Shown: piece after piece, positions 3,305 through 54,171 of the stretch | Position numbering within the stretch: the first letter of the stretch is position 1 | Layout: each line of letters begins with the position of its first letter | Source of the DNA: an uncultured Bacteroidales bacterium | GTDB taxonomy: Bacteria > Bacteroidota > Bacteroidia > Bacteroidales > JAIOZK01 | DNA length: 63,366 bases | Direction of reading: 5' to 3' | NCBI GenBank assembly: GCA_964550205.1 | Contig: CAZJYD010000008.1 | Span: forward strand, 1-63,366 | Position numbers and translations under genes: made by a program | The notes under the pieces: model-generated | The model's input: only the letters and a program-made list of their open reading frames with translations | The model's database searches: none | What the model was told of the DNA's origin: nothing

Positions 3305-3315
3305 ATAATAATATC

Positions 3316-12392: not shown

Positions 12393-12744
12393 TTTCTTTA
12401 CATTCAAAATGAATTATAATAAAGAAGGATTAATTAAAGGACGTATTAATTTTAATAAAGATCATAATATCTTTAAAGGACATTTTCCTAAAAACCCAAT
12501 TGTTCCTGGTGTATGTCAAATTCAGGCTATTAAGGAAATAGCAGAATATATATTAGATAAAAATTTTATGCTTACCCGGGCCAGAAATATTAAATTCATT
12601 TCCATAATTAATCCTGTAGAAACACCCTTTGTTTATATGGAATTATCCTATGAATTTTTGGAAGATAACGAATTGGATATTAATTGTACTTTAATATTAG
12701 ATGATAAAGTATTTTTAAAATTCAGGGGTACATTTAGTGAATAA
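12376..12744 (+). CDS. FabZ-like 3-hydroxyacyl-ACP dehydratase
   Basis: GHFPKNPIVPGVCQIQAIKE matches the FabZ catalytic His and PGV motif. Confidence 0.8.
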   Translation: MMLSGDFFTFKMNYNKEGLIKGRINFNKDHNIFKGHFPKNPIVPGVCQIQAIKEIAEYILDKNFMLTRARNIKFISIINPVETPFVYMELSYEFLEDNELDINCTLILDDKVFLKFRGTFSE

Positions 12745-26887: not shown

Positions 26888-26915
26888 TGTCTGAATTGAG
26901 ACATTGTATTTTTGC

Positions 26916-31534: not shown

Positions 31535-31918
31535 TTAGCTGTAAAGTTTTTCCGGTACATCAACCGGATTAAGTTCACTGTCAACCATCAACGCTTTTGT
31601 CTTTGACTTTGAAGCCAGTTTATTGTCTTTTTGTATAAATATCTTTTGTAAAAATACCAAATAAGGGGTTTCCATTTTTATCGATGTTTGTATTTCCACC
31701 TCGTCAAATAATTTTAATTCTTTGATATAACGAATATTTGTTTCAATCACTACAATGGAGTATTTATTATTTGAAAGATAATCAAGCATATCCAATTCCT
31801 TGAATACACACCATCTTGCCTGCTCAAGATAATTAAGATAAACAGCATTATTTAAGTGATTAAAACTATCAAGTTCATAACCTCTCACGGTTATATTATA
31901 TTTAAAGTGCTTGTTCAT
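31535..31918 (-). CDS. 4HBT/YbgC-type acyl thioesterase
   Basis: VRGYELDSFNHLNNAVYLNY hot-dog thioesterase signature. Confidence 0.72.
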   Translation of the reverse strand: MNKHFKYNITVRGYELDSFNHLNNAVYLNYLEQARWCVFKELDMLDYLSNNKYSIVVIETNIRYIKELKLFDEVEIQTSIKMETPYLVFLQKIFIQKDNKLASKSKTKALMVDSELNPVDVPEKLYS

Positions 31919-33329
31919 TTTTTGTATTTATTTTTTTTAAAATCTTATTGTGTTCGTGCTTTACAATTTTTTTCAATGGCATTTGGGTAAAATACGCGAA
32001 AAATGTTTTATGAATAATATCTGATATATGGTGGTTTTTATTTTTGCGGAATTTGTTGAAATAGAACAATGTTCGTTTTAGTATTTCTTTTCTGCTGTAC
32101 CCCTTGTTTTCGATGTTTAATAATGCTTTTATTAATTCATTATTACTAATGTTTTTATTAGGAACATTTGTAGCATTTGTATTAATATTGAGTAATTTGC
32201 CTTCTTTCTCCAACCGTTCAAATAAACGGCTTCCATGAAGTGCATAAACAGGATTGATTACAGGGAATATATTTGTTTCCCTGCAAAACTCTAATGTCTC
32301 ATAATAGGATTTTACAGTATCATTTTCATATCCGATTGTAAACCAGCCTGATAATATGATGCCTGAGTCCTGAAGGAATTCTATTTTATCCTTCATATCA
32401 GAAACCACATCATTGTCTTTTTGTATTCCCATCTTTTTTATGCTTCCGCTGGTTTTCAGGGTGTCAGGATTTATCGATTCCAACCCGACAGCAGCATATA
32501 TCAAACCGGATTCAACAGCCTTTTTTATTACTTTGCGCCCTTCATTTGAGGCAACTGCTTTTAAATTGGCCTGACCCATCCAGTATTTTTTCCCTGGCAA
32601 TTTACTTATTCGGTCATACAATTCATAATAGTAGTCATAGGATCCTTTTCTTCCGAAAACATTATCATCTATGAGGTAATAATAGCCTTTGAATTTCTTT
32701 ATTTCATTAACAACATCATTAATTGGTCTTGTTCTCGTATTTTTACCGAATACTTTTGATACAAGGCAAAAATCACAATCTATCGGACAGCCTCGTGAAG
32801 CATAGACCGTATCAAATTTATACTTATTCTTAAATGCATTGTGTGCAGGTCTTTTAATGGATTTAAGATCCGGTAAGTTATCAAGAAAATGTACGGTATA
32901 ATTTCCTGCATTAAATTCATTTGGAGAACATACATAAAAGTCTTTTAATTTATTATTTTCAAAATCACACAGTAATCGAGGCCATAGAAGTTCTCCCTCG
33001 CCAATTACTACTGCGTCGGCATGCTGTTTTGATACATAAGGATTAGCTGAAGCCTGCGGACCTCCCAAAATAACCGGTATATAATTTTTTCTGAATTTGT
33101 CAGCTATTTCAAATGCACTTTTCTCAGATGACATCTTTACACTTATCCCTACCAGGTCGGTTTTGTCATTATAATTTATTTTATCTCTTTTGCTATTTAA
33201 TAGATCAATTAAAGTATAATTGTGTTCAGGAGCTGCACTTACCAGGGTGGATAGCGATAAAGGCATAAATAATCTTCTTCCTTTTACATGGTCATCTTCT
33301 TCGGCTGCTAATATCAATTTAATATTCAT
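31902..33329 (-). CDS. B12-binding-domain radical SAM enzyme (rSAM 2)
   Basis: DLVGISV and LGGPQAS cobalamin-domain-like blocks. CX3CX2C CPIDCDFC at nt 32766-32789. Confidence 0.85.
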   Translation of the reverse strand: MNIKLILAAEEDDHVKGRRLFMPLSLSTLVSAAPEHNYTLIDLLNSKRDKINYNDKTDLVGISVKMSSEKSAFEIADKFRKNYIPVILGGPQASANPYVSKQHADAVVIGEGELLWPRLLCDFENNKLKDFYVCSPNEFNAGNYTVHFLDNLPDLKSIKRPAHNAFKNKYKFDTVYASRGCPIDCDFCLVSKVFGKNTRTRPINDVVNEIKKFKGYYYLIDDNVFGRKGSYDYYYELYDRISKLPGKKYWMGQANLKAVASNEGRKVIKKAVESGLIYAAVGLESINPDTLKTSGSIKKMGIQKDNDVVSDMKDKIEFLQDSGIILSGWFTIGYENDTVKSYYETLEFCRETNIFPVINPVYALHGSRLFERLEKEGKLLNINTNATNVPNKNISNNELIKALLNIENKGYSRKEILKRTLFYFNKFRKNKNHHISDIIHKTFFAYFTQMPLKKIVKHEHNKILKKINTKNEQAL

Positions 33330-33604: not shown

Positions 33605-35284
33605 GTGAAAAAAAGATCTGTGTTTACTAAGATATTGAAGATAACAGGAATAAGTCTGTTGGCTATTCTGATTATTTCATATGTATATGTAAAACTTGTT
33701 AGCAGGGTTGAACCTCCGGAAGTTCCTGTAACAGATATTGTAAAGGCCAAAGTTGTTACTAAAGATAATAACTTTTACAGTATAGGCAATTGCTGGCTGA
33801 AAGAGAGCGAAACAGGTATATGGGAGCTTTATATTGAAGGCAGCGCTTTTGAAAGAGGTGTGATTATAGGTAAACTTACCAAGGATTTAATAAGAAAACA
33901 GGAAGAAATATTTGTGTCAAAAGTAAAAGAATTTGTGCCTTCCCCAATTTATCGCAGCTTTTTGCAGATGATGATTGAGTATTTCAACCGTAATCTTGAT
34001 AGTAAGATACCGGATGAATACTTAAAGGAGATATACGGTATATCTTTATCAGCTTCAAAGGATTTTAATAGATACGGTTCACCATATATGAGAATTCTGA
34101 ATTATCATGCGGCTCATGATATAGGGCATGCTCTGGCAGATTATTCTTTTGTTGGTTGTACTTCATTTTCTTATTGGGATGTTACTAGAAAAGATACCTT
34201 GTTGATAACCGGTAGGAATTTTGATTTTTCAATAGGTGACGAATTTGCAGAAGATAAGATAGTTGCTTTTTTTGCTCCTGATGAAGGGAATAAATTTGCT
34301 TTTGTAACATGGGGAGGTATGATTGGTGTGGTTTCAGGAATGAATTGCCAGGGGATTTCGGTTACTATTAACGCTGCTAAGTCAGAATTGCCTATATCAT
34401 CGTCTACACCGATCTCAATCCTTACACGTGAAATTTTACAATATGCCGGAAATATTGATGAGGCTGTTAAGATAGCGAAAAAAAGACAAACCTTTGTTTC
34501 GGAATCAATATTGGTTAGCTCAGCAAGTGATGGTAAAACAATAATTATAGAGAAAACACCTTTAAAAGAAGCTGTCGTTTTTCCTGATTCCAATTATATA
34601 ATCTGTACAAATCATTTCAGAAGCAGGGTTTTCAGCGATACCAGTTTACCATCTTCAACCTCAAAATACCGTTATAAAAGAGTTAAGGAGCTATTTAACA
34701 GATACGATTCAATAACACCCGAAATAGCTGCAAGCATATTAAGAAACCGAAAAGGATTAAATGATGCGGATATTGGTAATGGAAATGAAAAAGCTATAAA
34801 TCAATTAATTGCACATCACTCTGTTCTTTTTGATTTATATAATAAGATAATGTGGGTATCTGCAAACCCTTATAATTTAGGTAAATATGTGGCTTATGAT
34901 TTGAATAAAGTATTTAAGGATTACAACGGATTAAAAGAAAATAAAGAAATTTACAATAAAGAGCTGAGCATACCACCCGACACTTTTTTGTTTACCAATG
35001 ATTATCAGCAGTTTATTAAATATAAAAGCCTGAGGAAAAAGATATTAAAGGCAACAGACAAAAGTAGGAGAATCAGTGCAGATACTTTAAAATTGTTTAG
35101 ATCCACAAATCCGGAATATTTTGAATTATATCTGGTTTTGGGTGATTATTATAAGAGCATACATCAATATAATAAAGCCATTGACAATTATAATATAGCA
35201 TTATCAAAAGAAATCGACTCTGAGAATAATGAAAAGAAAATATCAGAAAACCTTGAGGCATGCCTCGAAAATGCTAAAAGATAG
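33605..35284 (+). CDS. C45-family (Ntn, acyl-CoA:6-APA acyltransferase-like) protein with N-terminal membrane anchor and C-terminal TPR-like tail
   Basis: Hydrophobic N-terminus ITGISLLAILIISYVYV. Gly-Cys site FVGCTSFS (Cys185, nt 34157-34159). GTG start. Confidence 0.65.
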   Translation: MKKRSVFTKILKITGISLLAILIISYVYVKLVSRVEPPEVPVTDIVKAKVVTKDNNFYSIGNCWLKESETGIWELYIEGSAFERGVIIGKLTKDLIRKQEEIFVSKVKEFVPSPIYRSFLQMMIEYFNRNLDSKIPDEYLKEIYGISLSASKDFNRYGSPYMRILNYHAAHDIGHALADYSFVGCTSFSYWDVTRKDTLLITGRNFDFSIGDEFAEDKIVAFFAPDEGNKFAFVTWGGMIGVVSGMNCQGISVTINAAKSELPISSSTPISILTREILQYAGNIDEAVKIAKKRQTFVSESILVSSASDGKTIIIEKTPLKEAVVFPDSNYIICTNHFRSRVFSDTSLPSSTSKYRYKRVKELFNRYDSITPEIAASILRNRKGLNDADIGNGNEKAINQLIAHHSVLFDLYNKIMWVSANPYNLGKYVAYDLNKVFKDYNGLKENKEIYNKELSIPPDTFLFTNDYQQFIKYKSLRKKILKATDKSRRISADTLKLFRSTNPEYFELYLVLGDYYKSIHQYNKAIDNYNIALSKEIDSENNEKKISENLEACLENAKR

Positions 35285-35317: not shown

Positions 35318-36325
35318 TTAATAACGTATTGCTTTTCGTAATTCCCTGTATACATTTTCCTCATTATCAGCGATACCATGCACCATATCAGCAATAGAAT
35401 CAAATGAAATTTCATTCTGGCCTCTTTTTTTGCATATCCTGCTTGCCATTATTGCAAATTCACGCCATTGATCTCCGACCTCAGTCATTTTTTGAGAAAG
35501 CCCAAGCATTCTATCATTATCCAGAATTTCTGCAGCTTCCTGCAGAAAAGCCGAATAGAGAAATCTGAAGCCTGCACCCCCTGTGCCTATTTCTTCCTGC
35601 ATTCTTACAACCTGCCCCAGATACTTTGATGCTTTTTCTTCACCGATCCTTTTAGGCCATTTTCTTATTCTTGAAGAAAGGTAACGAATCCCCCGTACTC
35701 CTATTATTGGGCCCGGAAGCAAGACCATTTCAAAGATAGTTCTCTTTATTCCTTTTATTATTGCTTTTTTAAGATCGATCTCAGAAGGTACCTTACTAAT
35801 ATAGTACATTTTGCCTTTGGGTTTGTATGTACCCCTTGCATATCTTACCTTAATTAGTTCATCATAGGTAAGCTCCTGAGGTGTTTCCATAATGGGATCA
35901 CTAATGAGATATTTATTGTCTTCTTTTCCAAAGGCAATGATATTATGTGCATTGAAATGAAATCTATAAGGAGCAGGAAAATAGGGTAGGTGATAAACTC
36001 CAATCACCATACCTGTGGGAATACCATGATTTAGATTATTGTCTAATTCGTACATTGCCTTCTCGGGAGACCTGAAACGCTTTATTTCGGTGGAAATTCC
36101 AAGAGAGTGTCTTATACGTTTAAATATCAAACCCGGCAATGGTCTGAAAGTAGTGACCGGAATGCCGTTGAGTTTTATTATTGGCAGGTGAGAAAAAAAG
36201 ATACCTGAACCTATACCAAAAATCATAGGCTCACTAAGATCAATTCCATAATACCGCAAAAGGTTGGAAACTACTCCATTCTCACAATGGGCAGCCATAC
36301 GGTGGTCAAAATCGATCTTTGTCAT
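35318..36325 (-). CDS. BtrH-like protein (BtrH N-terminal cysteine-peptidase-like domain + C-terminal domain), copy 1
   Basis: DHRMAAHCENGVVSNLLRYYGIDLSEPMIFGIGSGIFF N-terminus (Cys14, nt 36284-36286). Paralogue of 48117-49133. Confidence 0.68.
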   Translation of the reverse strand: MTKIDFDHRMAAHCENGVVSNLLRYYGIDLSEPMIFGIGSGIFFSHLPIIKLNGIPVTTFRPLPGLIFKRIRHSLGISTEIKRFRSPEKAMYELDNNLNHGIPTGMVIGVYHLPYFPAPYRFHFNAHNIIAFGKEDNKYLISDPIMETPQELTYDELIKVRYARGTYKPKGKMYYISKVPSEIDLKKAIIKGIKRTIFEMVLLPGPIIGVRGIRYLSSRIRKWPKRIGEEKASKYLGQVVRMQEEIGTGGAGFRFLYSAFLQEAAEILDNDRMLGLSQKMTEVGDQWREFAIMASRICKKRGQNEISFDSIADMVHGIADNEENVYRELRKAIRY

Positions 36326-36730
36326 TTATTCCTCAATATTATTAATATCTTTAACACTATTTAAATTAAATGCTTCCATGTACTTGATAAGCGTCTTATT
36401 TTTTAATTTATTAAAGGGTTTGGGTTTAAGGTGCCTCTTAACACATAAGATAAAAATGCCTGTATATTCAGATAGTAATTTAGGGGTCATCATATTCTTT
36501 TTCATATAATAGTATATGGGACTCGCTCTTCCGTCTTTTACTTTTCTTCTTGCTTCTTCAATTTCTTTGTTAGTATCTTCCCACACCTGTTTCATTACGA
36601 TATTTTTGGGTTTCCAGCCTACGCTCTTTATCTTTACATATTTTCCATCCTTATCAACTGCATACTGGATTTCTCTGGTTTTACCATTTAACATATTTTC
36701 ATCATCCTGAGGTACTTGATTTACTTTCAT
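36326..36730 (-). CDS. small protein with C-terminal XRE-like helix-turn-helix, copy 1
   Basis: Paralogue of 47647-48120 (S..YYYM....L....GI....KH.KP..FN..K.KTL.KY.E.FN). Its stop directly abuts the BtrH-like ATG (TAAATG). Confidence 0.45.
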   Translation of the reverse strand: MKVNQVPQDDENMLNGKTREIQYAVDKDGKYVKIKSVGWKPKNIVMKQVWEDTNKEIEEARRKVKDGRASPIYYYMKKNMMTPKLLSEYTGIFILCVKRHLKPKPFNKLKNKTLIKYMEAFNLNSVKDINNIEE

Positions 36731-36743: not shown

Positions 36744-37883
36744 TTAAACCACTGTTAAAAGAGCGTATGTGTATGAAAATCTTGCACTTTCAGGAACCAT
36801 CACCAAGAGTTTTTCTCCTGGGTTTAATTTACCTGAATTAAAAAGTTCTTCAAGTATCAGATAAATGGATGCAGAACCAACATTTCCAACCCTTTCAAGG
36901 TTTAAAGACCAGCGTTCCAAAGGAATTGGTATTTTTAATCGTTTCATTTCCTCATATATTTTTTCTTTGAAAAAATAAGAAGAAATATGGGGGATGAAAT
37001 GATCTATATCGTTAATATTTAGATTGTATTTATCCAAAATATAAACAAGTCCTCTGCCTCCGTATTTTACTATGTTTTCTTCCAGCAATTTAACATCCTG
37101 TTTTAGTGAAAAAACAGAGTTGCTGATTATCTCATTTAAGGAGCAGTCTCTCCAAGGCATTAATTCACTACTATTTTTTTTAATACCACCGGCATACATG
37201 CAAGTATCCACTTCATTTGCATAAGATTTAATGTCTATCCATTCAACTTTAAGTGATGTTTTATTTATTGCAGGTTTATTTTCCATAAGAACTGCACCAG
37301 CGCCGTCCGAAAGCATCCATCTGAGAAATTCATTTTCAAATGCTATATAAGGGTTTTTACCCAATTCTTGATGTTTTGCAGTTTCTTCTTCAAAGTTTTT
37401 TGATAAAAGCCAGGTAGATAATTTCTCTGAACCCGTACATACGGCATTATTTGTATTTCCTGTAATAAGAGAGTAATAACCATATTTTAATGCCGACATC
37501 CCTGCATTGCAACTGCCACTTGCTGATATTATTTCGATGGGATTGCATTTAAGTTTGCCATGTACCATTGATGCATGACCGGGTAATAATTGATCAGGTG
37601 AAGTTGTTCCGCATGCCAGTAATTCAATGTCATTCAGTTTAAAATGATCATCAAAAAGCTTTTGTATTGCTTCAACAGTAATATCGGTATTGCTGTGTGT
37701 GGAATTACCTTTTTTATCAATCGCATAATATCGTGAAGTGATTTTATTATTTCTGAGAATTATGTTTTTTGATCTTGATTTTGATCCGTTGATCAAACCA
37801 AGGTATTCTTCCATCTCTTCGTTGCTTACTGGTTTATTTGGTAAATATTTAGAACTAGCTGTTATGTATGCTTTACTTATCAT
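36744..37883 (-). CDS. darB: dialkylresorcinol-forming KAS III-like condensing enzyme
   Basis: Cys125 (ASGSCNAGM), His299 (FIPHIS), Asn334 (VGNVGSAS). Directly downstream of the darA-like gene. Confidence 0.78.
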   Translation of the reverse strand: MISKAYITASSKYLPNKPVSNEEMEEYLGLINGSKSRSKNIILRNNKITSRYYAIDKKGNSTHSNTDITVEAIQKLFDDHFKLNDIELLACGTTSPDQLLPGHASMVHGKLKCNPIEIISASGSCNAGMSALKYGYYSLITGNTNNAVCTGSEKLSTWLLSKNFEEETAKHQELGKNPYIAFENEFLRWMLSDGAGAVLMENKPAINKTSLKVEWIDIKSYANEVDTCMYAGGIKKNSSELMPWRDCSLNEIISNSVFSLKQDVKLLEENIVKYGGRGLVYILDKYNLNINDIDHFIPHISSYFFKEKIYEEMKRLKIPIPLERWSLNLERVGNVGSASIYLILEELFNSGKLNPGEKLLVMVPESARFSYTYALLTVV

Positions 37884-43019: not shown

Positions 43020-43066
43020 TTTTGTTTTTCTGTTTTAAGATAGAAAGCAATTTGGAGGAAGATAAA

Positions 43067-44605
43067 ATGGTAATAACAGACAAATCGCGGGTAGGAATAA
43101 GCGATTTTTATCGATTAATCTTTCAAAACGAAGAACTGCAAGTAGATAGTAGTACGCTTGAATTAGTGGAAAAAAATTACAGGTTTTTAGAAGAGTTTAT
43201 TGAGAACAAGATAATATACGGGATTAATACAGGTCTTGGACCTATGGCCCAGTACAAAGTTGATGATGATAAGCATAAAGAATTACAGCTCAATTTAATA
43301 CGCAGTCACTCGTCTGGTTGTGGTGATCCTATTGATAAATATAGTATTAAAGCGGCGATGATAAGCCGTTTAATTTGTTTTAGCAGAGGACTTTCTGGAA
43401 TACATCCGGAAGTTATTGAGCTCATAAGGCAATTAATAAATAACAACATAATCCCATATATACCTGAACATGGTGGGGTGGGAGCTAGCGGGGACCTGGT
43501 TCAACTGGCTCATTTTGCATTGTCTTTGATAGGAGAAGGTAAAGTATTATACAAGAATACCTGGCAGCCAACAGATGATGTTCTGAGAAAACTCGATTTA
43601 AAGCCGATTGGTATTCATATTCGGGAAGGGTTAGCATTGATAAACGGTACTGCAGTGATGTCAGGGATTGGTGTGATAAACCTGATCCACGCAAGAAATT
43701 TATTTAATTGGATGATTATTGCATCGGCAATTATTAATGAAATAGTTGAAACATTTGATGATCATTATTCAAATGAATTGAATTCGGTTAAATCCCATCC
43801 GGGACAGAACTATATTGCAAAAATCCTTAGAAACATACTTCAAGACAGTAAATTAACCAAGAGAAGACCGGATGTATTGTATAACAATAACAATAAGAAA
43901 AATCATAGGATCAAGAAAAAAGTACAGGAATATTACTCAATAAGATGTATACCTCAGATACTTGGCCCGGTTTATGACGTTATTGTTAATGCTGAAAAAG
44001 TGCTGGAGGATGAGATCAACTCAGTTAATGATAATCCGGTGATTGATATGCACAATAAATGTGTATTTCATGGAGGAAATTTTCATGGTGATTATGTATC
44101 GCTTGAGATGGATAAGTTGAAAATTGCCCTTACTAAATTATCTATGCTATCGGAAAGACAATTGAATTTTTTAATGAATCACAAGATAAATGAGATATTG
44201 CCACCATTTGTTAATTTAGGTGTTTTGGGACTGAATCTTGGAATGCAGGGTGCACAGTTCACAGCTACTTCAAATGTCGCTGAAAACCAGACATTATCTA
44301 CTTCAATGTATGTTCACAGCATTCCGTGTAATAATGAAAATCAGGATATAGTCAGCATGGGAACAAATGCTGCATTAATTACAAAAAGAATAATTGAAAA
44401 CGCGTTTCAAACATTGTCTATTGAATTGATAGCTTTAATACAAGCAGTTGATTATTTGGAGTTTCAGGATAAACTATCGGAGAAGACAAAGTGGTCATAT
44501 AAAGAACTAAGGAAGTTGGTGCCCAAATTCAATGAGGATAAAGTTTTATATGAGGATATTGAGAATATCAAAAATTATATATTAAAGAACAAAATTGAAT
44601 TATAA
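43067..44605 (+). CDS. flxA: MIO-dependent aromatic amino acid ammonia-lyase, probable tyrosine ammonia-lyase
   Basis: MIO triad GASGDL (ASG at nt 43484-43492), NTGLGPMA, NDNP, GGNFHGD, QDIVSMG. No hut genes nearby, and the gene sits in a pigment cluster. ATG at 43067 preferred over the TTG at 43022. Confidence 0.82.
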   Translation: MVITDKSRVGISDFYRLIFQNEELQVDSSTLELVEKNYRFLEEFIENKIIYGINTGLGPMAQYKVDDDKHKELQLNLIRSHSSGCGDPIDKYSIKAAMISRLICFSRGLSGIHPEVIELIRQLINNNIIPYIPEHGGVGASGDLVQLAHFALSLIGEGKVLYKNTWQPTDDVLRKLDLKPIGIHIREGLALINGTAVMSGIGVINLIHARNLFNWMIIASAIINEIVETFDDHYSNELNSVKSHPGQNYIAKILRNILQDSKLTKRRPDVLYNNNNKKNHRIKKKVQEYYSIRCIPQILGPVYDVIVNAEKVLEDEINSVNDNPVIDMHNKCVFHGGNFHGDYVSLEMDKLKIALTKLSMLSERQLNFLMNHKINEILPPFVNLGVLGLNLGMQGAQFTATSNVAENQTLSTSMYVHSIPCNNENQDIVSMGTNAALITKRIIENAFQTLSIELIALIQAVDYLEFQDKLSEKTKWSYKELRKLVPKFNEDKVLYEDIENIKNYILKNKIEL

Positions 44606-44618: not shown

Positions 44619-45341
44619 ATGAATGCACTTGTAACAGGAGGATCGAGGGGTATTGGAAAAGCAATATGTATAAAGCTTGCTGAATCCGGGCATCATGTGA
44701 TAATAAATTATCATAAAAATAAACAGAAAGCAAAAGAATCTTTACAAGAAGTTAATAAGCATAGTAGCGGGGAATTGTTGAAATTTGATGTTGCAAATAG
44801 TAAGGAAGTGGAAAATGCTATAAATAAATGGAAAGCAGAGAATAAAGAACGTCATATTGATATATTGATAAATAATGCAGGAATAAGGAAAGATAATGTG
44901 ATCATATGGATGAATAATGATGAATGGGAGGAGATCATAAATACAAACCTGAATAGTTTTTTCTATCTTACAAGATTACTAATTCAGGACATGTTGGTGA
45001 ATAAATTCGGGCGTATTATTAATATAGTTTCTTTATCCGGTTTAAAAGGATTACCGGGGCAGATAAATTATTCTGCTGCTAAAGCAGGTTTAATAGGTGC
45101 AACTAAAGCACTTGCCCAGGAAGTTGGTAAAAAGAAAGTAACAGTAAATGCTGTTGCACCCGGGTATATCAAAACAGACATGACAAAAGAGCTGGATGAG
45201 AAGGAATTAAAAAGGACTATTCCTTTAAACCGTTTTGGATACCCTGAAGAGGTTGCCGAACTGGTTAATTTTCTGGCCTCGGAACGATCATCTTATATAA
45301 CAGGTGAAGTAATATCCATAAATGGTGGTTTATATACATGA
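44619..45341 (+). CDS. fabG: 3-oxoacyl-ACP reductase (SDR)
   Basis: VTGGSRGIGKAI, NNAG, YSAAKAG. Confidence 0.9.
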   Translation: MNALVTGGSRGIGKAICIKLAESGHHVIINYHKNKQKAKESLQEVNKHSSGELLKFDVANSKEVENAINKWKAENKERHIDILINNAGIRKDNVIIWMNNDEWEEIINTNLNSFFYLTRLLIQDMLVNKFGRIINIVSLSGLKGLPGQINYSAAKAGLIGATKALAQEVGKKKVTVNAVAPGYIKTDMTKELDEKELKRTIPLNRFGYPEEVAELVNFLASERSSYITGEVISINGGLYT

Positions 45342-45365: not shown

Positions 45366-46583
45366 ATGAATAAGGTAGTAATTACCGGAATTGGCATATA
45401 TTCAACTATTGGAAAAAATATACATGAGGTAAAGCAATCTTTATATGAAGGTAGATCGGGTATAGTTTACGATCCTGAAAGAAAGGAAATGGGATTTAGA
45501 TCTGCGCTTACAGGCAAAATCGAACGCCCTGTCCTTAAAGGCAAATTACCAAGGCGCATGAGAATTGGCATGGCAGAACAAGGTGAATATGCATATGTAT
45601 CAACTTTAGAAGCTTTGGAAATGTCAAATTTGAACCAGGATTATCTTGATAATAATGAGGTGGGTATTCTTTTTGGCAATGATAGTTCTGCTGTTCCTGT
45701 CGTTGAAGGTATGGACCTTTTGAGAGAGAAAAAGGATACTATGTTATTGGGATCGGGAGCGATTTTTCAGTCAATGAATTCAACAGTGAGCATGAACCTT
45801 TCGGTTATTTTTAAGCTCAAAGGAATCAATTTTACTGTAAGTGCAGCTTGTGCAAGCGGTTCACAAGCCATAGGTATTGGAACATTGCTTATAAGAATGG
45901 GTTTGCAGGATACGATAATATGTGGAGGAGCACAGGAAATAAGTGCCGAATCGATGAGTAGCTTTGATGGTTTGGCTGCTTTTTCAACACAGGAAAAAGA
46001 ACCTACAAAAGCGTCCAGACCTTTTGACAGTGAGAGAGATGGTTTGATTCCAAGCGGTGGAGCAGCAACAGTGATAATTGAAAATTATGATACTGCGAAA
46101 AAAAGAGGAGCACCAATATTAGGTGAAATAATAGGATATGGATTTTCATCGAATGGTGACCATATTTCTGTTCCTAATGTTGATGGACCTGTTAGATCAA
46201 TAAAAAGGGCTTTAAAAGATGCCAGGATTAATAGTAGTGAAATTGATTATGTTAATGCACATGCTACTTCAACGATTGTAGGAGATAAAAATGAAGCACA
46301 GGCTATTTATCAAGTACTTGGAGGTGACGTGTTGGTGAGTTCCACAAAATCGATGACAGGTCACGAAATGTGGATGGGGGGAGCTAGCGAGGTTGTATAT
46401 TCTATGATTATGATGACAGATTCTTTTATTGCTCCAAATATCAATCTGAATAAACCTGATGAAGAATCTGAAAAATTAAATATTGTCAGAGAAACCATGA
46501 ACAAGAACATAAATGTTTTTTTATCTAATTCATTTGGTTTTGGGGGAACAAATTCAACATTGATCATAAGAAAAACAGTTTAG
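45366..46583 (+). CDS. beta-ketoacyl-ACP synthase I/II-like
   Basis: SAACASGSQA (Cys), AHATST, TGHEMWMGG, NSFGFGGTN. Confidence 0.87.
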   Translation: MNKVVITGIGIYSTIGKNIHEVKQSLYEGRSGIVYDPERKEMGFRSALTGKIERPVLKGKLPRRMRIGMAEQGEYAYVSTLEALEMSNLNQDYLDNNEVGILFGNDSSAVPVVEGMDLLREKKDTMLLGSGAIFQSMNSTVSMNLSVIFKLKGINFTVSAACASGSQAIGIGTLLIRMGLQDTIICGGAQEISAESMSSFDGLAAFSTQEKEPTKASRPFDSERDGLIPSGGAATVIIENYDTAKKRGAPILGEIIGYGFSSNGDHISVPNVDGPVRSIKRALKDARINSSEIDYVNAHATSTIVGDKNEAQAIYQVLGGDVLVSSTKSMTGHEMWMGGASEVVYSMIMMTDSFIAPNINLNKPDEESEKLNIVRETMNKNINVFLSNSFGFGGTNSTLIIRKTV

Positions 46584-46662: not shown

Positions 46663-47553
46663 ATGACTTCATGGAAAGGTAAAAGCAGAGGAGGTGTTCT
46701 TGGAACCAGAATTTTTATTCTAATTCTTAAAAGATTTAATATATCTCTCGCTTATTTTGTCTTGTATTTTGTTGCTTTTTATTACTTGATCTTTACTGAA
46801 AGATCAGGGATCAGGTATTATTTTAGAACGATCTTAGGGTATCCTCTAATAAAAACCTACTGGAGTATTTATAGAAATTATTATAAATTCGGTCAGGTGT
46901 TATTAGATAAGGTTGCTGTTCTTGCCGGCTTTTCTGATAAATTTACTTTTAATTTTGATGGTGAGAATTATCTACGTACTTCTGTTGGAGAGAATCATGG
47001 AGGAGTACTTATAGGAGCACATTTAGGTAATTGGGAAATAGCAGGACAACTACTTGAACGGCTGGATACAAATATTAATATTGTAATGTTTGATGCCGAA
47101 GAAAGAGGGATAAAGGAATTGTTGAATGATGTGTTGGTGAAGAAAACTGTTAAAATAATATTTATAAAAGAAGATAGCTTTTCTTATTTGCATGAAATCA
47201 GCAATGCTCTTGAAAATAAAGAAATTGTAGCTATTCATGGTGACAGATTTTTAAAGGGGCATAAATATACCGAATGTCTATTTATGGGTAAAAATGCAAA
47301 GTTTCCTACAGGCCCATTCTATTTAGCTATGAAATATCAAGTACCTGTGTTTTTTGTTAATGCAATGAAAGAAACCTCCACCCATTATCACTTTTATTCG
47401 ACCGAAGCCAAAATTTATCCTTATCCTTCAAAACTTAATGAAAGAAACCTAATAGTGAATAAAATGATTAAAGATTATACTAATGAATTGGAAAGAATTC
47501 TCAGAAAATACCCTTTGCAATGGTTTAATTATTATAATTTCTGGTATCAATAA
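46663..47553 (+). CDS. LpxL/HtrB-family (lipid A late acyltransferase-like) acyltransferase
   Basis: N-terminal membrane anchor, GAHLGNWE (HX4E) motif, ~295 aa. Confidence 0.72.
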   Translation: MTSWKGKSRGGVLGTRIFILILKRFNISLAYFVLYFVAFYYLIFTERSGIRYYFRTILGYPLIKTYWSIYRNYYKFGQVLLDKVAVLAGFSDKFTFNFDGENYLRTSVGENHGGVLIGAHLGNWEIAGQLLERLDTNINIVMFDAEERGIKELLNDVLVKKTVKIIFIKEDSFSYLHEISNALENKEIVAIHGDRFLKGHKYTECLFMGKNAKFPTGPFYLAMKYQVPVFFVNAMKETSTHYHFYSTEAKIYPYPSKLNERNLIVNKMIKDYTNELERILRKYPLQWFNYYNFWYQ

Positions 47554-47646
47554 ATTTGCTAATAAAATTTGATGACCCAATTAACGAAATTGAAGTAATT
47601 TTACAAACAAAAATAAGCTAAGAAATTTTGTTTAAAATCAATATTG

Positions 47647-48120
47647 ATGAAGGAAAAAGAATTATATGTCGAATATACTCCCCAGCAACATGTCTATTAT
47701 GTTGAGAAAGAAGATGAGATTTATGGACCTGTATTGAGCGGGTCGTATATTTCGAAACACCATCTTGATGATTACTGGAATAAACGCAAAAATCTTGAAA
47801 TGAAATTACGTAAGCAATTGCATTCGGGAGAAATTTCCACTGTTTATTATTATATGGTTCTTCAGGAAATGGGAGAAGCAGATTTGGCATCTAGGGTAGG
47901 TATTAGCAGGCATAAACTGCATAAGCATTTCAAACCGGCATATTTTAATAGAATAAAAATAAAAACTTTGAAAAAATATGCTGAAGTATTTAATGTGCCA
48001 CTGGTAAATATGTTTCAAACACTGCTGATAAAAAATGGTGATGAGAAGAAGATCAATGTTGATCAGATAAAAACAAATAATCCATTACATCTGGTCACTA
48101 AAATAGGACTTAATAAATGA
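47647..48120 (+). CDS. small protein with C-terminal XRE-like helix-turn-helix, copy 2
   Basis: LASRVGISRHKLHKHFK HTH-like segment. Paralogue of 36326-36730. ATGA overlap with the BtrH-like gene. Confidence 0.5.
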   Translation: MKEKELYVEYTPQQHVYYVEKEDEIYGPVLSGSYISKHHLDDYWNKRKNLEMKLRKQLHSGEISTVYYYMVLQEMGEADLASRVGISRHKLHKHFKPAYFNRIKIKTLKKYAEVFNVPLVNMFQTLLIKNGDEKKINVDQIKTNNPLHLVTKIGLNK

Positions 48121-49133
48121 ATACAATGGAGTTTAATCATAAGATGGCTGCTCATTGTGAGACAGGAACGCTAACGTCATTATTAAATAATAAAGGGCTT
48201 GATATAACCGAACCATTAGTTTTTGGTATATCAAGCGGAATATTTTTTGGATACCTGGATAATGCTAATTTTAGTTTCCCCACGATAATATTCAGAAGCA
48301 GGCCCGGACAAATACGAAAAAAAATATCCAAGCGACTGGGGATTAAGTTTATTACTCAGCGGTTTAAAGATATTGAAAAAGGTGAAGAGGCACTCAATCA
48401 ATTGATTGCAAAGCAGTTGCCTACGGCTGCCCAGGTGGATTTCTTTTATATGAATTATATGCCCGAATGGCAAAGAGTACATAATAATGTACATTTTATA
48501 ATCGTGATAGGTAAGAATTCATCAAAATATATTGTAAGTGATAGCTATTATCCGAAAATTGCAGAAATAAATCAGGATCAATTATATAAGGCTAGGTTTG
48601 CCGGTGGTTTTATGGCCCCGAGAGGTTTTATTTATTATCCTGATGAAATCAAGCAAGATAGAATTGATTACAAACCAGCAATAATTACAGGTATTAAAAA
48701 GGCCTGTACAAATATGTTGAAATTACCTGTACCTTTTGTTGGCGTTAAGGGAATATATAAATTTGCGAATAAAGTAAAAACATGGCCTGAATTAGTGAGG
48801 GATGAAGAACATTTATCGCACGAAATTATGAAAATCAATATATTGCTTGAAGATCAGGGTACGGGTGGAGCAGGTTTCAGATATATGTATGCAACTTTTC
48901 TTCAGCAAGCCTCGGAGATATTAGATAATAAACAATTGAATGAACTGTCGAAAAGAATGATGGAAATAGGAGATAAGTGGAGAAAAATATCTTATTTTGT
49001 TGCGAAAATAGGAAAACAAAGAGACCTTGGAGAAAACAGAATAAATGAATTAAGCGATAAAATTAAAATACAAGGTGATCTGGAAAAGAAATTCTTTAAG
49101 GATTTATATAAAACAATAAATAAACAAAAGTAA
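48117..49133 (+). CDS. BtrH-like protein, copy 2
   Basis: NHKMAAHCETGTLTSLLNNKGLDITEPLVFGISSGIFF (Cys14, nt 48156-48158). The C-terminal half is also collinear with copy 1 (GTGGAGFR, ASEILDN). Confidence 0.68.
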   Translation: MNTMEFNHKMAAHCETGTLTSLLNNKGLDITEPLVFGISSGIFFGYLDNANFSFPTIIFRSRPGQIRKKISKRLGIKFITQRFKDIEKGEEALNQLIAKQLPTAAQVDFFYMNYMPEWQRVHNNVHFIIVIGKNSSKYIVSDSYYPKIAEINQDQLYKARFAGGFMAPRGFIYYPDEIKQDRIDYKPAIITGIKKACTNMLKLPVPFVGVKGIYKFANKVKTWPELVRDEEHLSHEIMKINILLEDQGTGGAGFRYMYATFLQQASEILDNKQLNELSKRMMEIGDKWRKISYFVAKIGKQRDLGENRINELSDKIKIQGDLEKKFFKDLYKTINKQK

Positions 49134-49138
49134 ATTGT

Positions 49139-49420
49139 ATGAATGATAGTGAGAAACAACAGCTTAGAAGGGATATAAAAGGGAAAATAATGGAGCGATT
49201 GGATATAGCGCATATGAAACCGGAAGAAGTACCTAATGATGCCCAGTTGTTTGGAAAAAATAACCCATTAGGATTGGATTCAATAGATGCGATTGAAATA
49301 ATAATGACTATACAGGAGGAATATGGGGTGAGAATATCAGATCAGGATCATGCAAGAGTAATATTGAATTCAATTGATTCAATAGCTGAATTTTTAGAGA
49401 AAGAGCAAGTAAAAATATAG
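49139..49420 (+). CDS. acyl carrier protein (ACP 4 of 4)
   Basis: LGLDSIDAIE attachment motif. Starts 5 nt after the BtrH-like stop. Confidence 0.85.
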   Translation: MNDSEKQQLRRDIKGKIMERLDIAHMKPEEVPNDAQLFGKNNPLGLDSIDAIEIIMTIQEEYGVRISDQDHARVILNSIDSIAEFLEKEQVKI

Positions 49421-49512: not shown

Positions 49513-50127
49513 ATGAAAAAAACATTAGTGATATTATTTTTAATTGCGTTTGGTGCTGTTTCGCTAAGCGCCCAGGATTGCTCAAAAGCATTCAATTCAA
49601 CCACCATTACATGGTTTGGTCTTGATTTTTCAAAAGCAAAAATGATAGGTGCTATAGGATTTACTAATCCCGACAAAATTGTAAACTATTATTTTGATGC
49701 ATGGAACCAATTGATAATAATGGAATCCGATAAGTATAATGTAAAGAAGTTTTTTAAGAAGAATGATGTTGATAACGATTTATCAGTTGTAAGTGAAAGA
49801 AATGAAGAAGTAAGTTCTGATGAACTGGTGATTGAGGATTCCTATGATTTTACTGCCGACGATGTCAAGGGTATAATAAGCCAATATAATTCTGATGATG
49901 ATGGAGTTGGATTGGTATTTATTATTGAGGACTTTAATAAACTGGAAGAAATGGGAAGTATTTGGGTTACTTTCTTTGACATTTCATCCAGTAAGGTATT
50001 ATTTACAGCAAAGGTTTCAGAAGAGCCAGGTGGATGGGGATTCAGAAATTACTGGGCACGTTGTATTTATGAGGTTATGAAAACCTCAAAGAAGAATCTT
50101 AATAAATGGGAAAAGGATTGTAAGTAG
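49513..50127 (+). CDS. secreted protein of unknown function
   Basis: Cleavable-type signal peptide MKKTLVILFLIAFGAVSLSAQ. No recognised motif. Confidence 0.5.
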   Translation: MKKTLVILFLIAFGAVSLSAQDCSKAFNSTTITWFGLDFSKAKMIGAIGFTNPDKIVNYYFDAWNQLIIMESDKYNVKKFFKKNDVDNDLSVVSERNEEVSSDELVIEDSYDFTADDVKGIISQYNSDDDGVGLVFIIEDFNKLEEMGSIWVTFFDISSSKVLFTAKVSEEPGGWGFRNYWARCIYEVMKTSKKNLNKWEKDCK

Positions 50128-50282: not shown

Positions 50283-51374
50283 ATGAGTAAATCTTTGAAA
50301 ATATTGTTTGTCCGAATTTTTTTTTCATTCAGGAACGGTCTGAAAAAGCTTTCCTGTTTTATTATACCTTCTAATCTTGCTGTTTTGGAACTTGCCCAGA
50401 ATTATTGGATTTCAAAGGCTATTGGTACTGCTGCTGAATTAGAAATTGCAGATTTCTTAGTAAAAGGTCCAAAGGATATTAATAAACTAGCTGTAGAAAC
50501 AAAAACCGATGTATCAGCTTTGTACAGATTAATGAGAGCATTGTCTGGTATTGGGATATTTAAAGAAAAGAATAACAGGGTTTTTGAAATGTCAAAACTT
50601 GCACTTCCTCTTGCGAAAGGCCCAAATTCGGTTAAACATATGATCATCCATCAGACGAGTAAATACAACTGGAAGATGGTATCAGAACTGGATCTGGCTG
50701 TCAGGCGAGGCAACTACGTTGCCGGAAAGGTGCTGGGTGAGGATATTTTTAGTTATTTAAAACATAATCCGCAAAGAAACGAATTGTATAATAAAGCTAT
50801 GTCAGATAGCGCTGAGTTCTTCTCAAAAACATTAGTAAGGTTTCATCATTTGCCGGATTTTAATACCTTGGTTGATGTTGGTGGTGGGGAAGGTATTTTA
50901 CTGGGTTATTTATTGAGGAATAATAAAAAAGCGAAAGGTGTTCTTTTTGATTTTCCTCATGTAATTAGCAGGGCAGAATCAAATTTTAAGAGATTAGGTG
51001 TTGCAAAAAGAGCATCAATTGTTACAGGAAACTTTCTTGAAAGTATTCCTGTGAAAGCTGATACTTATCTTTTTAAAAATATTTTTCATGCATTTGATGA
51101 TAAAACATGTGTTAGAATTTTACGAAATGTTGAAAAAGCGATGAGTGAAAATGCAAAAATTCTTATTGTGGAAATGGATTTAAAAAGAAAGAATAAATAT
51201 TCATGGGGGAAATTATTTGATTTGCAAATGCTTGTTGGTGTTGAAGGTGGAAGGGAAAGAACTAAGGATAATTTTAAAAACTTATTAGAAAATACCGGAT
51301 TTGAAATAAGCAAAATAATAAAAACAGTAACACCTTTTCATATAATTGTTATTAACAGAGTAGATGAAAAATGA
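50283..51374 (+). CDS. small-molecule O-methyltransferase-type class I SAM methyltransferase (OMT 2)
   Basis: Winged-helix/dimerisation-like N-terminus, SAM motif I LVDVGGGEG. Confidence 0.78.
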   Translation: MSKSLKILFVRIFFSFRNGLKKLSCFIIPSNLAVLELAQNYWISKAIGTAAELEIADFLVKGPKDINKLAVETKTDVSALYRLMRALSGIGIFKEKNNRVFEMSKLALPLAKGPNSVKHMIIHQTSKYNWKMVSELDLAVRRGNYVAGKVLGEDIFSYLKHNPQRNELYNKAMSDSAEFFSKTLVRFHHLPDFNTLVDVGGGEGILLGYLLRNNKKAKGVLFDFPHVISRAESNFKRLGVAKRASIVTGNFLESIPVKADTYLFKNIFHAFDDKTCVRILRNVEKAMSENAKILIVEMDLKRKNKYSWGKLFDLQMLVGVEGGRERTKDNFKNLLENTGFEISKIIKTVTPFHIIVINRVDEK

Positions 51375-52456
51375 AACACTCATATTTTCTGGCGGGCATT
51401 CCGTTAAATAAATTGTTTCGGTTAATAATCCGCAATAAAGGAATTACATTATATCCAAAGTATATTATCCGGTTTCTATTTTTGTTGCAGAACGGAATAT
51501 GGGTGTTTTTCTTTTCGATAAAGGAAAAGAGAAAATACAAAAAACAGGTTTGTTCTATTCCGGTACCGGATGATCCTCTGGTTATAATAGGACACTGGCG
51601 TTCAGGAAGTACTTTTCTACATCAGCTTATTGCATTGGATGACAATTTTATTGCACCCACTGTATTTCAGGTTTCCCTGCCACAGGGATTTTTGGTTTCA
51701 AGAAAATATTACAAACTTGTCATGAGCAGGATGATTGGTAAAAAAAGACCTATGGATAATGTTAAATTAGGTTTTGATGAGCCTCAGGAAGATGAGTATG
51801 CCGTATTAAAAATGACAAGCTCTTCCCCACTGGAAAATCTGATATTTCCGAAAGATAGGGAGTATTTTCTTTCAAAATATTCTGATTTTATTCCGACGGA
51901 AGAAGATAAGTGGCGGGATTTTTTATATGAATTTTGTAAAAAACTTATTATTATTAATGGTGGTAGAAAAAAAATTGTGTTTAAGAATCCATTTCACTCT
52001 CTGAGAATTGAATTACTTTGTAAAATGTTTCCGAATATAAAATTCATACATATATACAGGAATCCTCTTGATGTTGTGCCTTCAACAATTCGCATGTGGA
52101 GTGTGGTTGGGAAACAAAATTCAATGAAAAAAGGATTCGTTCCTCCAAAGGTTAGTGAGCTTGCTGTGTTTATGAACAAATATTTAAATAAAACAAGGGA
52201 GTATCTTAGGGGTTTGCCGGATAATAAATATATTGAATTAAAGTTTGAAGATTTTGAAAATGATCCGGTAAAAAGCATAAAATCGGTCTATGAGCATTTC
52301 GGTTTTAAATACTCAAAGAATTTGGAAAACAAAATGAATGATTATCTGAAAGAACTTGGAGATTATAGAAAAAATAAATATTGCCTAACAGACAATGAAA
52401 AGGAAATAATTGAAAGTGAGCTGAGAGATCATATGATCTATTATAATTATTTATAA
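51371..52456 (+). CDS. PAPS-dependent sulfotransferase family protein
   Basis: 5'-phosphosulfate loop HWRSGSTF (RSGST at nt 51599-51613) and 3'-phosphate motif YRNPLDVVPS. ATGA overlap with OMT 2. Confidence 0.78.
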   Translation: MKHSYFLAGIPLNKLFRLIIRNKGITLYPKYIIRFLFLLQNGIWVFFFSIKEKRKYKKQVCSIPVPDDPLVIIGHWRSGSTFLHQLIALDDNFIAPTVFQVSLPQGFLVSRKYYKLVMSRMIGKKRPMDNVKLGFDEPQEDEYAVLKMTSSSPLENLIFPKDREYFLSKYSDFIPTEEDKWRDFLYEFCKKLIIINGGRKKIVFKNPFHSLRIELLCKMFPNIKFIHIYRNPLDVVPSTIRMWSVVGKQNSMKKGFVPPKVSELAVFMNKYLNKTREYLRGLPDNKYIELKFEDFENDPVKSIKSVYEHFGFKYSKNLENKMNDYLKELGDYRKNKYCLTDNEKEIIESELRDHMIYYNYL

Positions 52457-52465
52457 AGTTTATGT

Positions 52466-53731
52466 ATGAAGTTTAGAATTATATATCCTAAATGGGAAAA
52501 GCTAAAAGAACAAACAACATTTAACCTTCCACCACATGGTCCTGTTGTTTTTGCGGCAACTTTGCCTGATTACGTTTCTGTTGATTTAATTGATGAAAAT
52601 GTTGAAAGTATTGATTTTAATGAACCGGTAGACTTTGTGGGTATCTCAGTTATGTTAACAGCACAGATTAAAAGAGGCTGGGAAATAGCACAGGAATATC
52701 GAAGCAGGGGAATTAAAGTTATTTTTGGTGGTATAGCAACCATGCTTCATGCTGAGGAAACATTGCAATATACTGATTCTATTTTCCTTGGTGAAACAGA
52801 AGGCAGGATGGAACAGGTAATCAATGATTTCATGAATGATAAACTTAAGAAAGTTTATAATTTTTTTAATGACCGTCCTGATCCTTCTGAAATTAATCCG
52901 GCCAGGAGAGATATTTTAAATAATGAATTATACTACCATAAGGGTGTGAGAATGGTTGATTTGTTTCATGCATCACGTGGTTGTAAATTCAATTGTTATC
53001 CTTGTTGTGCTGCTTTTTTAGGAGGTAGAAAATTTCGCCCCAGACCAATAGAAAAATCTATTGAGGAGCTTGAATCCATAGAAAATAATAGATTATTCAT
53101 TGTGGATAATTCTCTTGCACAGGATACAGAATGGGAAAAAGAACTGTTTAGAGAAATGATCCCACTTAAAAAGAAATGGTGTTGTCATACAATAGAAAAT
53201 GATAGTGAAGTTTTAGACCTGGCTGCTCAAGCAGGTGCATGGTATGTTTATCAGGCTGTTTTTGATGATTCTGAATATATCAGAAAAAGGATTAAACAAT
53301 ATCATGATTTCGGGATAGGAATTGAAGCCACTATACTCCTTGGTATGGATAACCAGACAGAAGATGATATTTTGCGGTTGCTCGACTTTTTGCATGAAAT
53401 GAAAATCGAACTTGCTGAATTTACTGTGTTAACTCCTTTTAAACAAACCAAAGCTTATGACGATCTTCTTAGAGAGGATAGAATAATTGATTTCGATTGG
53501 AATAACTATAATGCAGGCAAAGTAGTTTTTAAACCTAAAAATATGAGCCGGGAAAGATTACAGGAACTATATGAATATGCATGGGAGAGTTTCTACAGTG
53601 AAGAAACGCAAGAGGAAAAAATGTTTAAACTGTTAATGAGGGTTATCGATAAAGAGATTCAGGATGGCACATACCGTTCGAGAAGAAAAGACCTTATTGA
53701 TAAATCATTCGGGGATAAAATTGATAGATAA
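52466..53731 (+). CDS. B12-binding-domain radical SAM enzyme (rSAM 3)
   Basis: VDFVGISV and FGGIATM cobalamin-domain-like blocks. CX3CX2C CKFNCYPC at nt 52982-53005. Confidence 0.85.
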   Translation: MKFRIIYPKWEKLKEQTTFNLPPHGPVVFAATLPDYVSVDLIDENVESIDFNEPVDFVGISVMLTAQIKRGWEIAQEYRSRGIKVIFGGIATMLHAEETLQYTDSIFLGETEGRMEQVINDFMNDKLKKVYNFFNDRPDPSEINPARRDILNNELYYHKGVRMVDLFHASRGCKFNCYPCCAAFLGGRKFRPRPIEKSIEELESIENNRLFIVDNSLAQDTEWEKELFREMIPLKKKWCCHTIENDSEVLDLAAQAGAWYVYQAVFDDSEYIRKRIKQYHDFGIGIEATILLGMDNQTEDDILRLLDFLHEMKIELAEFTVLTPFKQTKAYDDLLREDRIIDFDWNNYNAGKVVFKPKNMSRERLQELYEYAWESFYSEETQEEKMFKLLMRVIDKEIQDGTYRSRRKDLIDKSFGDKIDR

Positions 53732-53796: not shown

Positions 53797-54171
53797 ATGA
53801 AACATCATAACAAATATATTGATGACATATATACATTTGAATCGGCTTTGGGAATAATTTCAAAATGTGGCATTAAAATAATTGAAAAAGAAAAGAAGAA
53901 AATCATTATTTTAACGGAACTTTATGATATTAATCCCGGAAGCTCAATCACAGAAAATTGTTCCTCCCTGGCTAATGAATTAATTAATAAGGAAAATTTG
54001 AATCCTGAAACCACAGTATTCATTCATCAAAATCCGGATAGAGGTTCCAAATACGAATTTTACAAGGAAGCTTTTGATATTATTCATTTTAAAAATAAAG
54101 ATGGTAAATTATCTAATCCTAAATGGGAAAGGCTATCCCGGAAACAGATCGATAAATTGATTAGCACATAA
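53797..54171 (+). CDS. hypothetical protein
   Basis: 124-aa ORF with ordinary composition and no recognised motif. Confidence 0.4.
   Translation: MKHHNKYIDDIYTFESALGIISKCGIKIIEKEKKKIIILTELYDINPGSSITENCSSLANELINKENLNPETTVFIHQNPDRGSKYEFYKEAFDIIHFKNKDGKLSNPKWERLSRKQIDKLIST

Follow-up and report, generated by a model that had tools for sequence, protein, structure and literature searches.

Flexirubins and aryl polyenes belong to the most widespread pigment lipids of bacteria, and they serve as chemotaxonomic markers through a colour shift in KOH that depends on a free phenol. Their biosynthesis has been described for the flx-dar clusters of Chitinophaga pinensis and Flavobacterium johnsoniae, in which FlxA is a tyrosine ammonia-lyase and the 4-coumarate-CoA ligase activity of C. 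pinensis FlxY has been shown by experiment (PMC3992019). Here we analysed a 63,366-nt stretch of DNA from an uncultured Bacteroidales bacterium (GenBank assembly GCA_964550205.1, contig CAZJYD010000008.1), referred to below as the window, in which a sulfotransferase (ST) gene lies at the right edge of a flexirubin-type cluster. The window cluster shares FlxA, FlxY, DarB, DarG, DarH, ketosynthase/chain-length-factor (KS/CLF) pairs and LolA with the C. pinensis and F. johnsoniae clusters, and an MMPL exporter fusion, a family 2 glycosyltransferase (GT2) and a polysaccharide deacetylase are also common to them. It goes beyond these clusters in having a cassette composed of a diverged DarG (DarG'), a second DarH (DarH'), a dedicated acyl carrier protein (ACP') and ST, in having three B12-domain radical S-adenosylmethionine (SAM) genes, and in having a pair formed by one of these genes (rSAM) and the small gene h124. 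Our best explanation is that ST is an optional tailoring add-on, dependent on 3'-phosphoadenosine 5'-phosphosulfate (PAPS), to a flexirubin-type pathway that makes an aryl polyene and a dialkylresorcinol.

An earlier note, made from the DNA sequence of the window, had joined an O-methyltransferase (OMT), ST and rSAM into a tailoring operon at the cluster edge. The features from which it started can be read directly. All three open reading frames are on the plus strand, OMT and ST overlap in an ATGA at 51371-51374, ST and rSAM are separated by 9 nt (52457-52465), and the ST motif HWRSGSTF occupies nucleotides 51593-51616, a span that includes the 51599-51613 noted before. The three gene identities were borne out by Pfam, motifs and folds, and the location at the right edge of the cluster was confirmed because housekeeping genes come next (FeoB, Hpt, TPR, RecA, endonuclease III and a sigma factor).

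ST exceeds the Pfam gathering thresholds of PF13469 (95.1 bits against 27) and PF00685 (49.2 bits against 22). Across 20 homologs the columns of GHWRSGST and RNPLDVVPS are invariant or nearly so, and the motifs GHWR(S/T)GST, KNPFHS and R(N/H)P..V(V/I)PS align with those of Stf9, Stf1 and the ST domains of CurM and olefin synthase (OLS). An ST-family profile searched against the PDB matched Stf9 (E = 1.4e-14), Stf1 (2e-14), the OLS ST (2.4e-7) and the CurM ST (7.3e-7); cytosolic and tyrosylprotein sulfotransferases were reached in this search only at E values above 0.01. An AlphaFold2 model of ST (mean predicted local distance difference test score, pLDDT, 75) gave Stf9 as the best Foldseek match with template modelling (TM) scores of 0.65/0.61, followed by Stf1, the tyrosylprotein sulfotransferases, OLS and CurM. 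Nearly all top matches were sulfotransferases or enzymes with the ST fold, and retinol dehydratase was among the weak ones. By family, motif and fold, ST is a predicted PAPS-dependent sulfotransferase. JGI annotation gives an Stf3 orthology name to several of its homologs, and Stf3 belongs to the S881 sulfolipid pathway. The protein also has a conserved N-terminal extension of about 65 residues with a hydrophobic stretch at residues 32-50. As the polar residues R34 and Q40 within this stretch are invariant, it may form a helix that lies at the membrane surface or acts as a substrate lid, and is less likely to be a transmembrane anchor.

Searches for relatives of ST returned 614 database sequences at E <= 1e-5, the best of which are 46-59% identical and nearly all of which come from uncultured Bacteroidales, Bacteroidota or Chlorobi. 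When one genome was scanned for each species, relatives turned up in 477 species genomes; the best 80 of these 477 are metagenome-assembled genomes (MAGs) of Bacteroidales, Marinilabiliales, Prolixibacteraceae, Lentimicrobiaceae and Rikenellaceae, with some Chlorobiota and Fibrobacterota. The carriers of the cassette are mostly uncultured Bacteroidales and their relatives, and are probably anaerobic. All window proteins were then mapped onto the ST-bearing genome loci, and the counts below refer to loci with enough flanking sequence. DarG'-DarH'-ACP' is found directly upstream of ST in 64 of 67 loci, with a median gap of about 37 nt between ACP' and ST, and in the window itself OMT and a gene designated h204 lie between these two. 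The gene directly after ST is rSAM in 49 of 71 loci and FlxY in 15, several of the latter having the order rSAM-h124-OMT-DarG'-DarH'-ACP'-ST-FlxY. Of the 47 loci that extend at least 8 kb in both directions, 39 have rSAM, 26 OMT, 14 FlxA and 15 FlxY. In 29 of them the cassette adjoins the gene for one of the two enzymes that produce the aromatic starter unit, FlxA (14) or FlxY (15). Many loci place ST exactly between ACP' and FlxY. OMT, where it occurs within 10 kb of ST (26/47), varies in position, and the window is the only mapped locus that has it directly before ST.

For the reciprocal test, metagenomes were scanned with an alignment of DarH'. The matches fell into two clean classes, 54 orthologs of DarH' at 48-69% identity and 26 canonical DarH proteins at 37-40%. 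ST is present in 23 of the 33 DarH' loci that have at least 2 kb downstream, and in 22 of these 23 it directly follows ACP'; in 6 of the 33 FlxY directly follows ACP' and ST is missing, and the other 4 have different arrangements. No ST was found in the 26 canonical metagenome loci, in which the DarA position, DarB, DarG and DarH recur as a four-gene order. These reciprocal synteny tests separate two units, DarG'-DarH'-ACP' with an optional ST and rSAM-h124 with an optional OMT. The OMT-ST-rSAM trio is therefore not an evolutionary unit, and the tailoring operon proposed earlier is not a conserved one: ST is a frequent yet dispensable member of the DarG'-DarH'-ACP' cassette. What deserves study is the DarG'-DarH'-ACP'-ST cassette, alongside which rSAM-h124 forms a second module. 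The absence of ST from some cassettes that are otherwise alike is in keeping with a decorating role.

ST lies inside aryl-polyene/flexirubin-type gene sets in all 81 related genome loci that could be judged, and in 23 metagenome loci in addition. The membership in the pigment cluster proposed by the earlier note thus stands, ST being conserved in flexirubin-type clusters and not beside unrelated genes. The remaining thought that OMT, ST and rSAM are unrelated border neighbours with no role in the pigment, to which their place at the cluster edge and the 155-nt gap before OMT might lend colour, is highly improbable given these counts and the co-directional, closely spaced genes from FlxA to h124.

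Judged by sequence, DarG'-DarH' duplicates, in diverged form, the canonical DarG/DarH pair found elsewhere in the window. DarG' shows weak similarity to helix-turn-helix proteins and matches the canonical DarG in BLASTP with E = 1e-12, and its 3' end overlaps the start of DarH' by 4 nt. DarH' is 38% identical to the canonical DarH and has an invariant HCE motif (H13-C14-E15). BtrH-type enzymes carry out ACP-dependent acyl transfer between a carrier protein and an acceptor. In two MAG loci (L-numbers here and below denote individual loci) the DarH' gene is disrupted, by a run of mid-gene stops that suggests frameshifts in L015 (7923-8927) and by one in-frame stop in L010 (8643-9647); these are either assembly errors or pseudogenes.

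We tentatively favour the reading in which the sulfate is retained as an ester on a flexirubin-type pigment and OMT methylates a phenol, which we consider plausible rather than probable. It builds on the observed gene identities, motifs, folds and synteny statistics, and adds to them a substrate, a site and the retention of the sulfate. ACP' would carry an aryl or acyl intermediate derived from tyrosine. DarH', a putative Cys-dependent BtrH-like transferase, would transfer this intermediate onto or off ACP'. ST would add a sulfate ester to a free hydroxyl, either on the ACP' intermediate or on the completed pigment, most likely at the 4-hydroxyphenyl head. OMT would methylate a phenolic hydroxyl, its translational coupling to ST being confined to this window. 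The rSAM-h124 pair would act as a separate unit.

Several points weigh against a retained sulfate on the aryl head. StaL and Teg12, which are bacterial phenol sulfotransferases, are absent from the ST profile matches even at E <= 10. As far as we know, the characterised members of the Stf/CurM branch act on aliphatic hydroxyls, either of lipids or of ACP-bound acyl chains, and the CurM/OLS ST acts on an ACP-bound beta-hydroxyacyl chain. To our knowledge the substrates of Stf9 and Stf1, the nearest solved relatives, are unknown, and we know of no characterised role for DarG or DarH. The cassette genes, as DarG/DarH paralogs, could serve the resorcinol half of the pathway instead. No PAPS-synthesis genes are present in the window, and the sequencing runs that hold the window sequence are DNA metagenomes only, with no RNA runs among them.

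In the literature searched, no paper mentions flexirubin together with sulfotransferase and no sulfated flexirubin was found, in agreement with the earlier statement that no sulfated member was known. Papers naming both aryl polyenes and sulfotransferases are few, and their titles and abstracts show no connection between the two; titles and abstracts likewise revealed no relevant paper on sulfated dialkylresorcinols, on flexirubin sulfation or on flexirubins of Prolixibacteraceae. The expectation that an O-methylated or O-sulfated product would represent a new class can be kept for sulfation, which alone would be new, but not for O-methylation, as methylated xanthomonadin derivatives are already known (PMC3949708).

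A different fate of the sulfate, which appears unlikely but deserves consideration, is that of a transient leaving group on the ACP'-bound chain, in the manner of the ACP-ST-thioesterase (TE) modules of CurM/OLS or of retinol dehydratase. The product would then be free of sulfate, and elimination would yield an alkene or an extended polyene, possibly aided by the AprD4-like rSAM. The ST gene does directly follow an ACP gene in 64 of 67 loci, its profile similarity to the OLS (2.4e-7) and CurM (7.3e-7) ST domains is significant if remote, and retinol dehydratase occurs among its weak fold matches; rSAM, whose best fold match is the radical diol dehydratase AprD4, directly follows ST in 49 of 71 loci. 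However, the similarity to Stf9/Stf1 is much stronger than that to CurM/OLS, and thioesterases of the alpha/beta-hydrolase type are lacking in the window, which has 4HBT-type enzymes only; none of the latter adjoins ST in the annotated loci. The absence of ST from about 30% of similar cassettes, where FlxY follows ACP', is hard to square with an essential step, and rSAM-h124 is present in loci without ST.

It is quite unlikely that ST sulfates a polar anchor, namely a sugar or glycerol hydroxyl, resembling Stf0 or NodH acting on sugars. The full-length aryl-polyene lipids of Xenorhabdus do have a galactosamine-phosphate-glycerol head (bioRxiv 10.1101/2020.12.19.423268). The window cluster encodes GT2, a polysaccharide deacetylase, acyltransferases, LolA and an MMPL exporter, with sugar-nucleotide genes at its left edge. 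Yet ST never adjoins the GT2, deacetylase or MMPL genes and is locked to DarG'-DarH'-ACP', and a GT2-MMPL cluster that has no DarH' cassette (L087) has no ST either.

ST and the AprD4-like rSAM, its next gene in about 70% of loci, might also work as a pair, in which the sulfate activates a hydroxyl of the ACP-bound or finished pigment and the radical enzyme removes it. This is a long shot, and we know of no described precedent for deoxygenation or desaturation by sulfation and radical SAM chemistry. If true, the pair would be an oxygen-independent route to deoxygenation or desaturation in anaerobic Bacteroidota.

To return to the retained sulfate ester and the methylated phenol, OMT matches PF00891 with 136.8 bits against a threshold of 22.3 and also has a Pfam dimerisation domain. 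It aligns over its full length with solved phenolic O-methyltransferases (9e-55 for 6c5b, then CalO6, AlpH and MmcR, the range being 9e-55 to 6e-39). The protein contains LVDVGGGEG; in 30 orthologs G200-G201 and D273 are invariant and the predicted catalytic His269 is conserved in at least 90%. We also considered OMT as the flexirubin methyltransferase FlxJ, which was ruled out (39.8 bits against a cut-off of 560); a separate FlxJ-like methyltransferase gene is present in the window. The gene h204, upstream of OMT, encodes a predicted secreted protein that matches no Pfam or NCBIfam family. It was rejected as a conserved member of the module and is a sporadic insert: of 90 related loci only L067 has a homolog, which lies 1.2 kb downstream of the ST there.

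The rSAM CxxxCxxC motif keeps its cysteines C173, C177 and C180 without exception across 58 orthologs, and orthologs are numerous at about 66-75% identity. Its scores lie under the Pfam gathering scores for the B12-binding domain PF02310 (31.6 against 32.1) and for Radical_SAM PF04055 (20.8 against 29.5), and in NCBIfam it has sub-threshold matches to B12-rSAM families only. The sub-threshold Radical_SAM score is offset by the fold: the AlphaFold2 model (pLDDT 82), which includes a Rossmann-type N-terminal domain, has AprD4 as its best Foldseek match (TM 0.77/0.71, E = 8e-18), followed by MgmA, TsrM and CysS. AprD4 is not known to use cobalamin. The reaction of rSAM may be either radical C-methylation or an AprD4-like radical dehydration.

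The partner gene h124, a fourth conserved gene that the earlier note had passed over, directly follows rSAM in 46 of 49 loci with a typical gap of about 14 nt. Its product has no Pfam, NCBIfam or PDB match, and a homolog search returned the query alone. Three loci without ST have the orders GT2-MMPL-FAD-C45-rSAM-h125-OMT (L087, 10001-12796), rSAM-h128-ATP-grasp-S58 peptidase with no aryl-polyene genes nearby, in a genome of 51% G+C (L086, 10001-11699), and rSAM-126 aa-ACP-U32-like protein (L088, 10001-13137). The pair is very highly conserved, with about 69-75% identity for rSAM. As it is found without ST and outside aryl-polyene clusters, rSAM-h124 is a unit independent of ST, and its role is probably more general than pigment tailoring. 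Relatives often carry, after rSAM-h124, a large protein with a CarboxypepD_reg domain (about 600-810 residues) and a protein of about 200 residues, neither of which is in the window. Examples of the former are found in L003 (12759-15134), L005 (13740-16115), L090 (11985-14420) and L089 (11329-13116), the last also matching the beta-barrel of TonB-dependent receptors.

The window has a G+C content of about 32%, and its sequence was found in two microbial-mat DNA runs, which points to a microbial-mat metagenome as its origin. The flexirubin-type cluster covers roughly 5.7-54.2 kb (about 50 kb), and its FlxA, FlxY, DarB and DarH genes all exceed their NCBIfam cut-offs (Table 1). It further encodes KS/CLF pairs, LolA, the MMPL-acyltransferase-methyltransferase fusion, GT2, a polysaccharide deacetylase and several ACPs. 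A string of 12 co-directional genes, all on the plus strand with short gaps, consists of FlxA, the ketoreductase, KS, the lipid-A-type acyltransferase, DarG', DarH', ACP', h204, OMT, ST, rSAM and h124. The block of ketoreductase, KS and acyltransferase adjoins the cassette in divergent orientation in 14 genome loci. An Rfam scan of the window revealed no riboswitch or other RNA. A scan for sigma-70 promoters and terminators was at background (51 found against 49 expected); Bacteroidota promoters fall outside its model, so that it is silent on operon boundaries.

Table 1 Coordinates of the genes discussed, in positions of the window
Feature	Coordinates	Strand	Evidence
UDP-glucose dehydrogenase, epimerase/dehydratase, RmlD-like reductase, phosphoglucomutase (left edge of cluster)	143-5058	+	
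FlxJ-like methyltransferase gene, separate from OMT	5728-6795		
4HBT-type thioesterase	7244-7672		
Glycosyltransferase	12737-13915		
Fusion of MMPL transporter, PlsC-type acyltransferase and class I methyltransferase, 1277 aa	13916-17749	+	
FlxY, 4-coumarate-CoA ligase type, remote from the cassette here	19370-20680	+	NF053551 673 bits (cut-off 520)
B12-domain radical SAM gene	26904-28253	+	
4HBT-type thioesterase	31535-31918		
B12-domain radical SAM gene	31902-33329	-	
C45-family autoproteolytic acyltransferase	33605-35284	+	206 bits (cut-off 85)
Canonical DarH	35318-36325	-	NF053550 462 bits (cut-off 300)
Canonical DarG-family protein	36326-36730	-	NF053536 144 bits (cut-off 70); flexirubin_DarG equivalog model 150 vs 170
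DarB	36744-37883	-	NF053539 586 bits (cut-off 550)
Protein at DarA position, 303 aa	37971-38882	-	No significant Pfam/NCBIfam family; weak flavodoxin match
FlxA tyrosine ammonia-lyase, opens co-directional string	43022-44605	+	NF053541 815 bits (cut-off 700); PF00221 E 5e-155
Ketoreductase	44619-45341	+	Pfam
Ketosynthase	45366-46583	+	Pfam
Lipid-A-type acyltransferase	46663-47553	+	Pfam
DarG', diverged DarG-family protein	47644-48120	+	NF053536 64.8 bits (cut-off 70)
DarH', second BtrH-like acyltransferase	48117-49133	+	NF053550 331 bits (cut-off 300)
ACP', dedicated acyl carrier protein, conserved DS motif	49139-49420	+	PF00550 E 2.5e-7
h204, predicted secreted protein	49513-50127	+	Hydrophobic N-terminus, KD19 1.95
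OMT, phenol-type SAM O-methyltransferase, 363 aa	50283-51374	+	PF00891 E 8e-40
ST, PAPS-type sulfotransferase, Stf/CurM-ST branch, 361 aa	51371-52456	+	PF13469, profile, fold
rSAM, radical SAM enzyme with N-terminal Rossmann (B12-binding-like) domain, 421 aa	52466-53731	+	CxxxCxxC, fold
h124, small rSAM partner, last cluster gene	53797-54171	+	Conserved position

Some further genes of the window recur in the relatives. Homologs of the 303-residue protein at the DarA position (34-43% identical) precede DarB in many canonical DarB-DarG-DarH metagenome loci. Of the two B12-domain radical SAM genes besides rSAM, one is HpnR/BchE-like (134 bits to HpnR, under the cut-off). The other heads a conserved operon, in which it is followed by 4HBT thioesterase, enoyl-CoA hydratase (ECH), phosphopantetheinyl transferase (PPTase)-like, ECH and ketosynthase III (KSIII)-like genes, which recurs beside the cassette in many relatives. 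The C45-family acyltransferase gene directly precedes OMT or the rSAM-h124 pair in L018, L021, L022, L087 and L129, and may for this reason share their tailoring set. The MMPL fusion has a counterpart of 1289 residues in L087, and the sugar-nucleotide genes at the left edge could supply the glycosyltransferase.

Hundreds of genomes of uncultured Bacteroidales, Marinilabiliales, Chlorobiota and Fibrobacterota have the ST cassette inside a flexirubin-type cluster, which points to a product that has yet to be described. This could be a pigment lipid made anionic by sulfation, or sulfate could serve the pathway as a chemical handle. In both cases the interpretation of such clusters in genome mining would change, and the DarG/DarH pair would gain its first functional clue.

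Known enzymes resemble each part of the locus to a different degree. The phenolic natural-product O-methyltransferases 6c5b, CalO6, AlpH and MmcR are like the window OMT in full-length alignment, SAM motif and catalytic His. AprD4, the radical SAM diol dehydratase, matches the rSAM model in fold over its full length at about 17% identity, and the class B (cobalamin) methylases MgmA, TsrM and CysS come next. As in the BtrH/BtrI system of butirosin, DarH' has a BtrH_N domain (E = 4.5e-37) and its own ACP next to it, but unlike BtrH it contains an additional DUF4872 domain. The mycobacterial enzymes Stf9 (2z6v) and Stf1 (2zq5), the best profile (about 1e-14) and fold matches to ST, share its 5'-phosphosulfate-binding (PSB) loop, K-x-P-x-H motif and 3'-phosphate-binding (3'-PB) motif, and the N-terminal extension of ST is partly matched in Stf1, whose alignment reaches back to profile position 36. 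They differ from ST in sequence, with about 16% identity, and in genomic setting, that of ST being a type II polyketide synthase-like pigment cluster. The ACP-ST-TE modules of CurM and olefin synthase (4gbm, 4gox) likewise place a PAPS-type ST right after a carrier protein in a pathway of polyketide or fatty-acid type, and their similarity to the window ST is significant yet remote. Unlike them, the window ST is a stand-alone protein that has no alpha/beta-hydrolase TE partner and is optional in its cassette.

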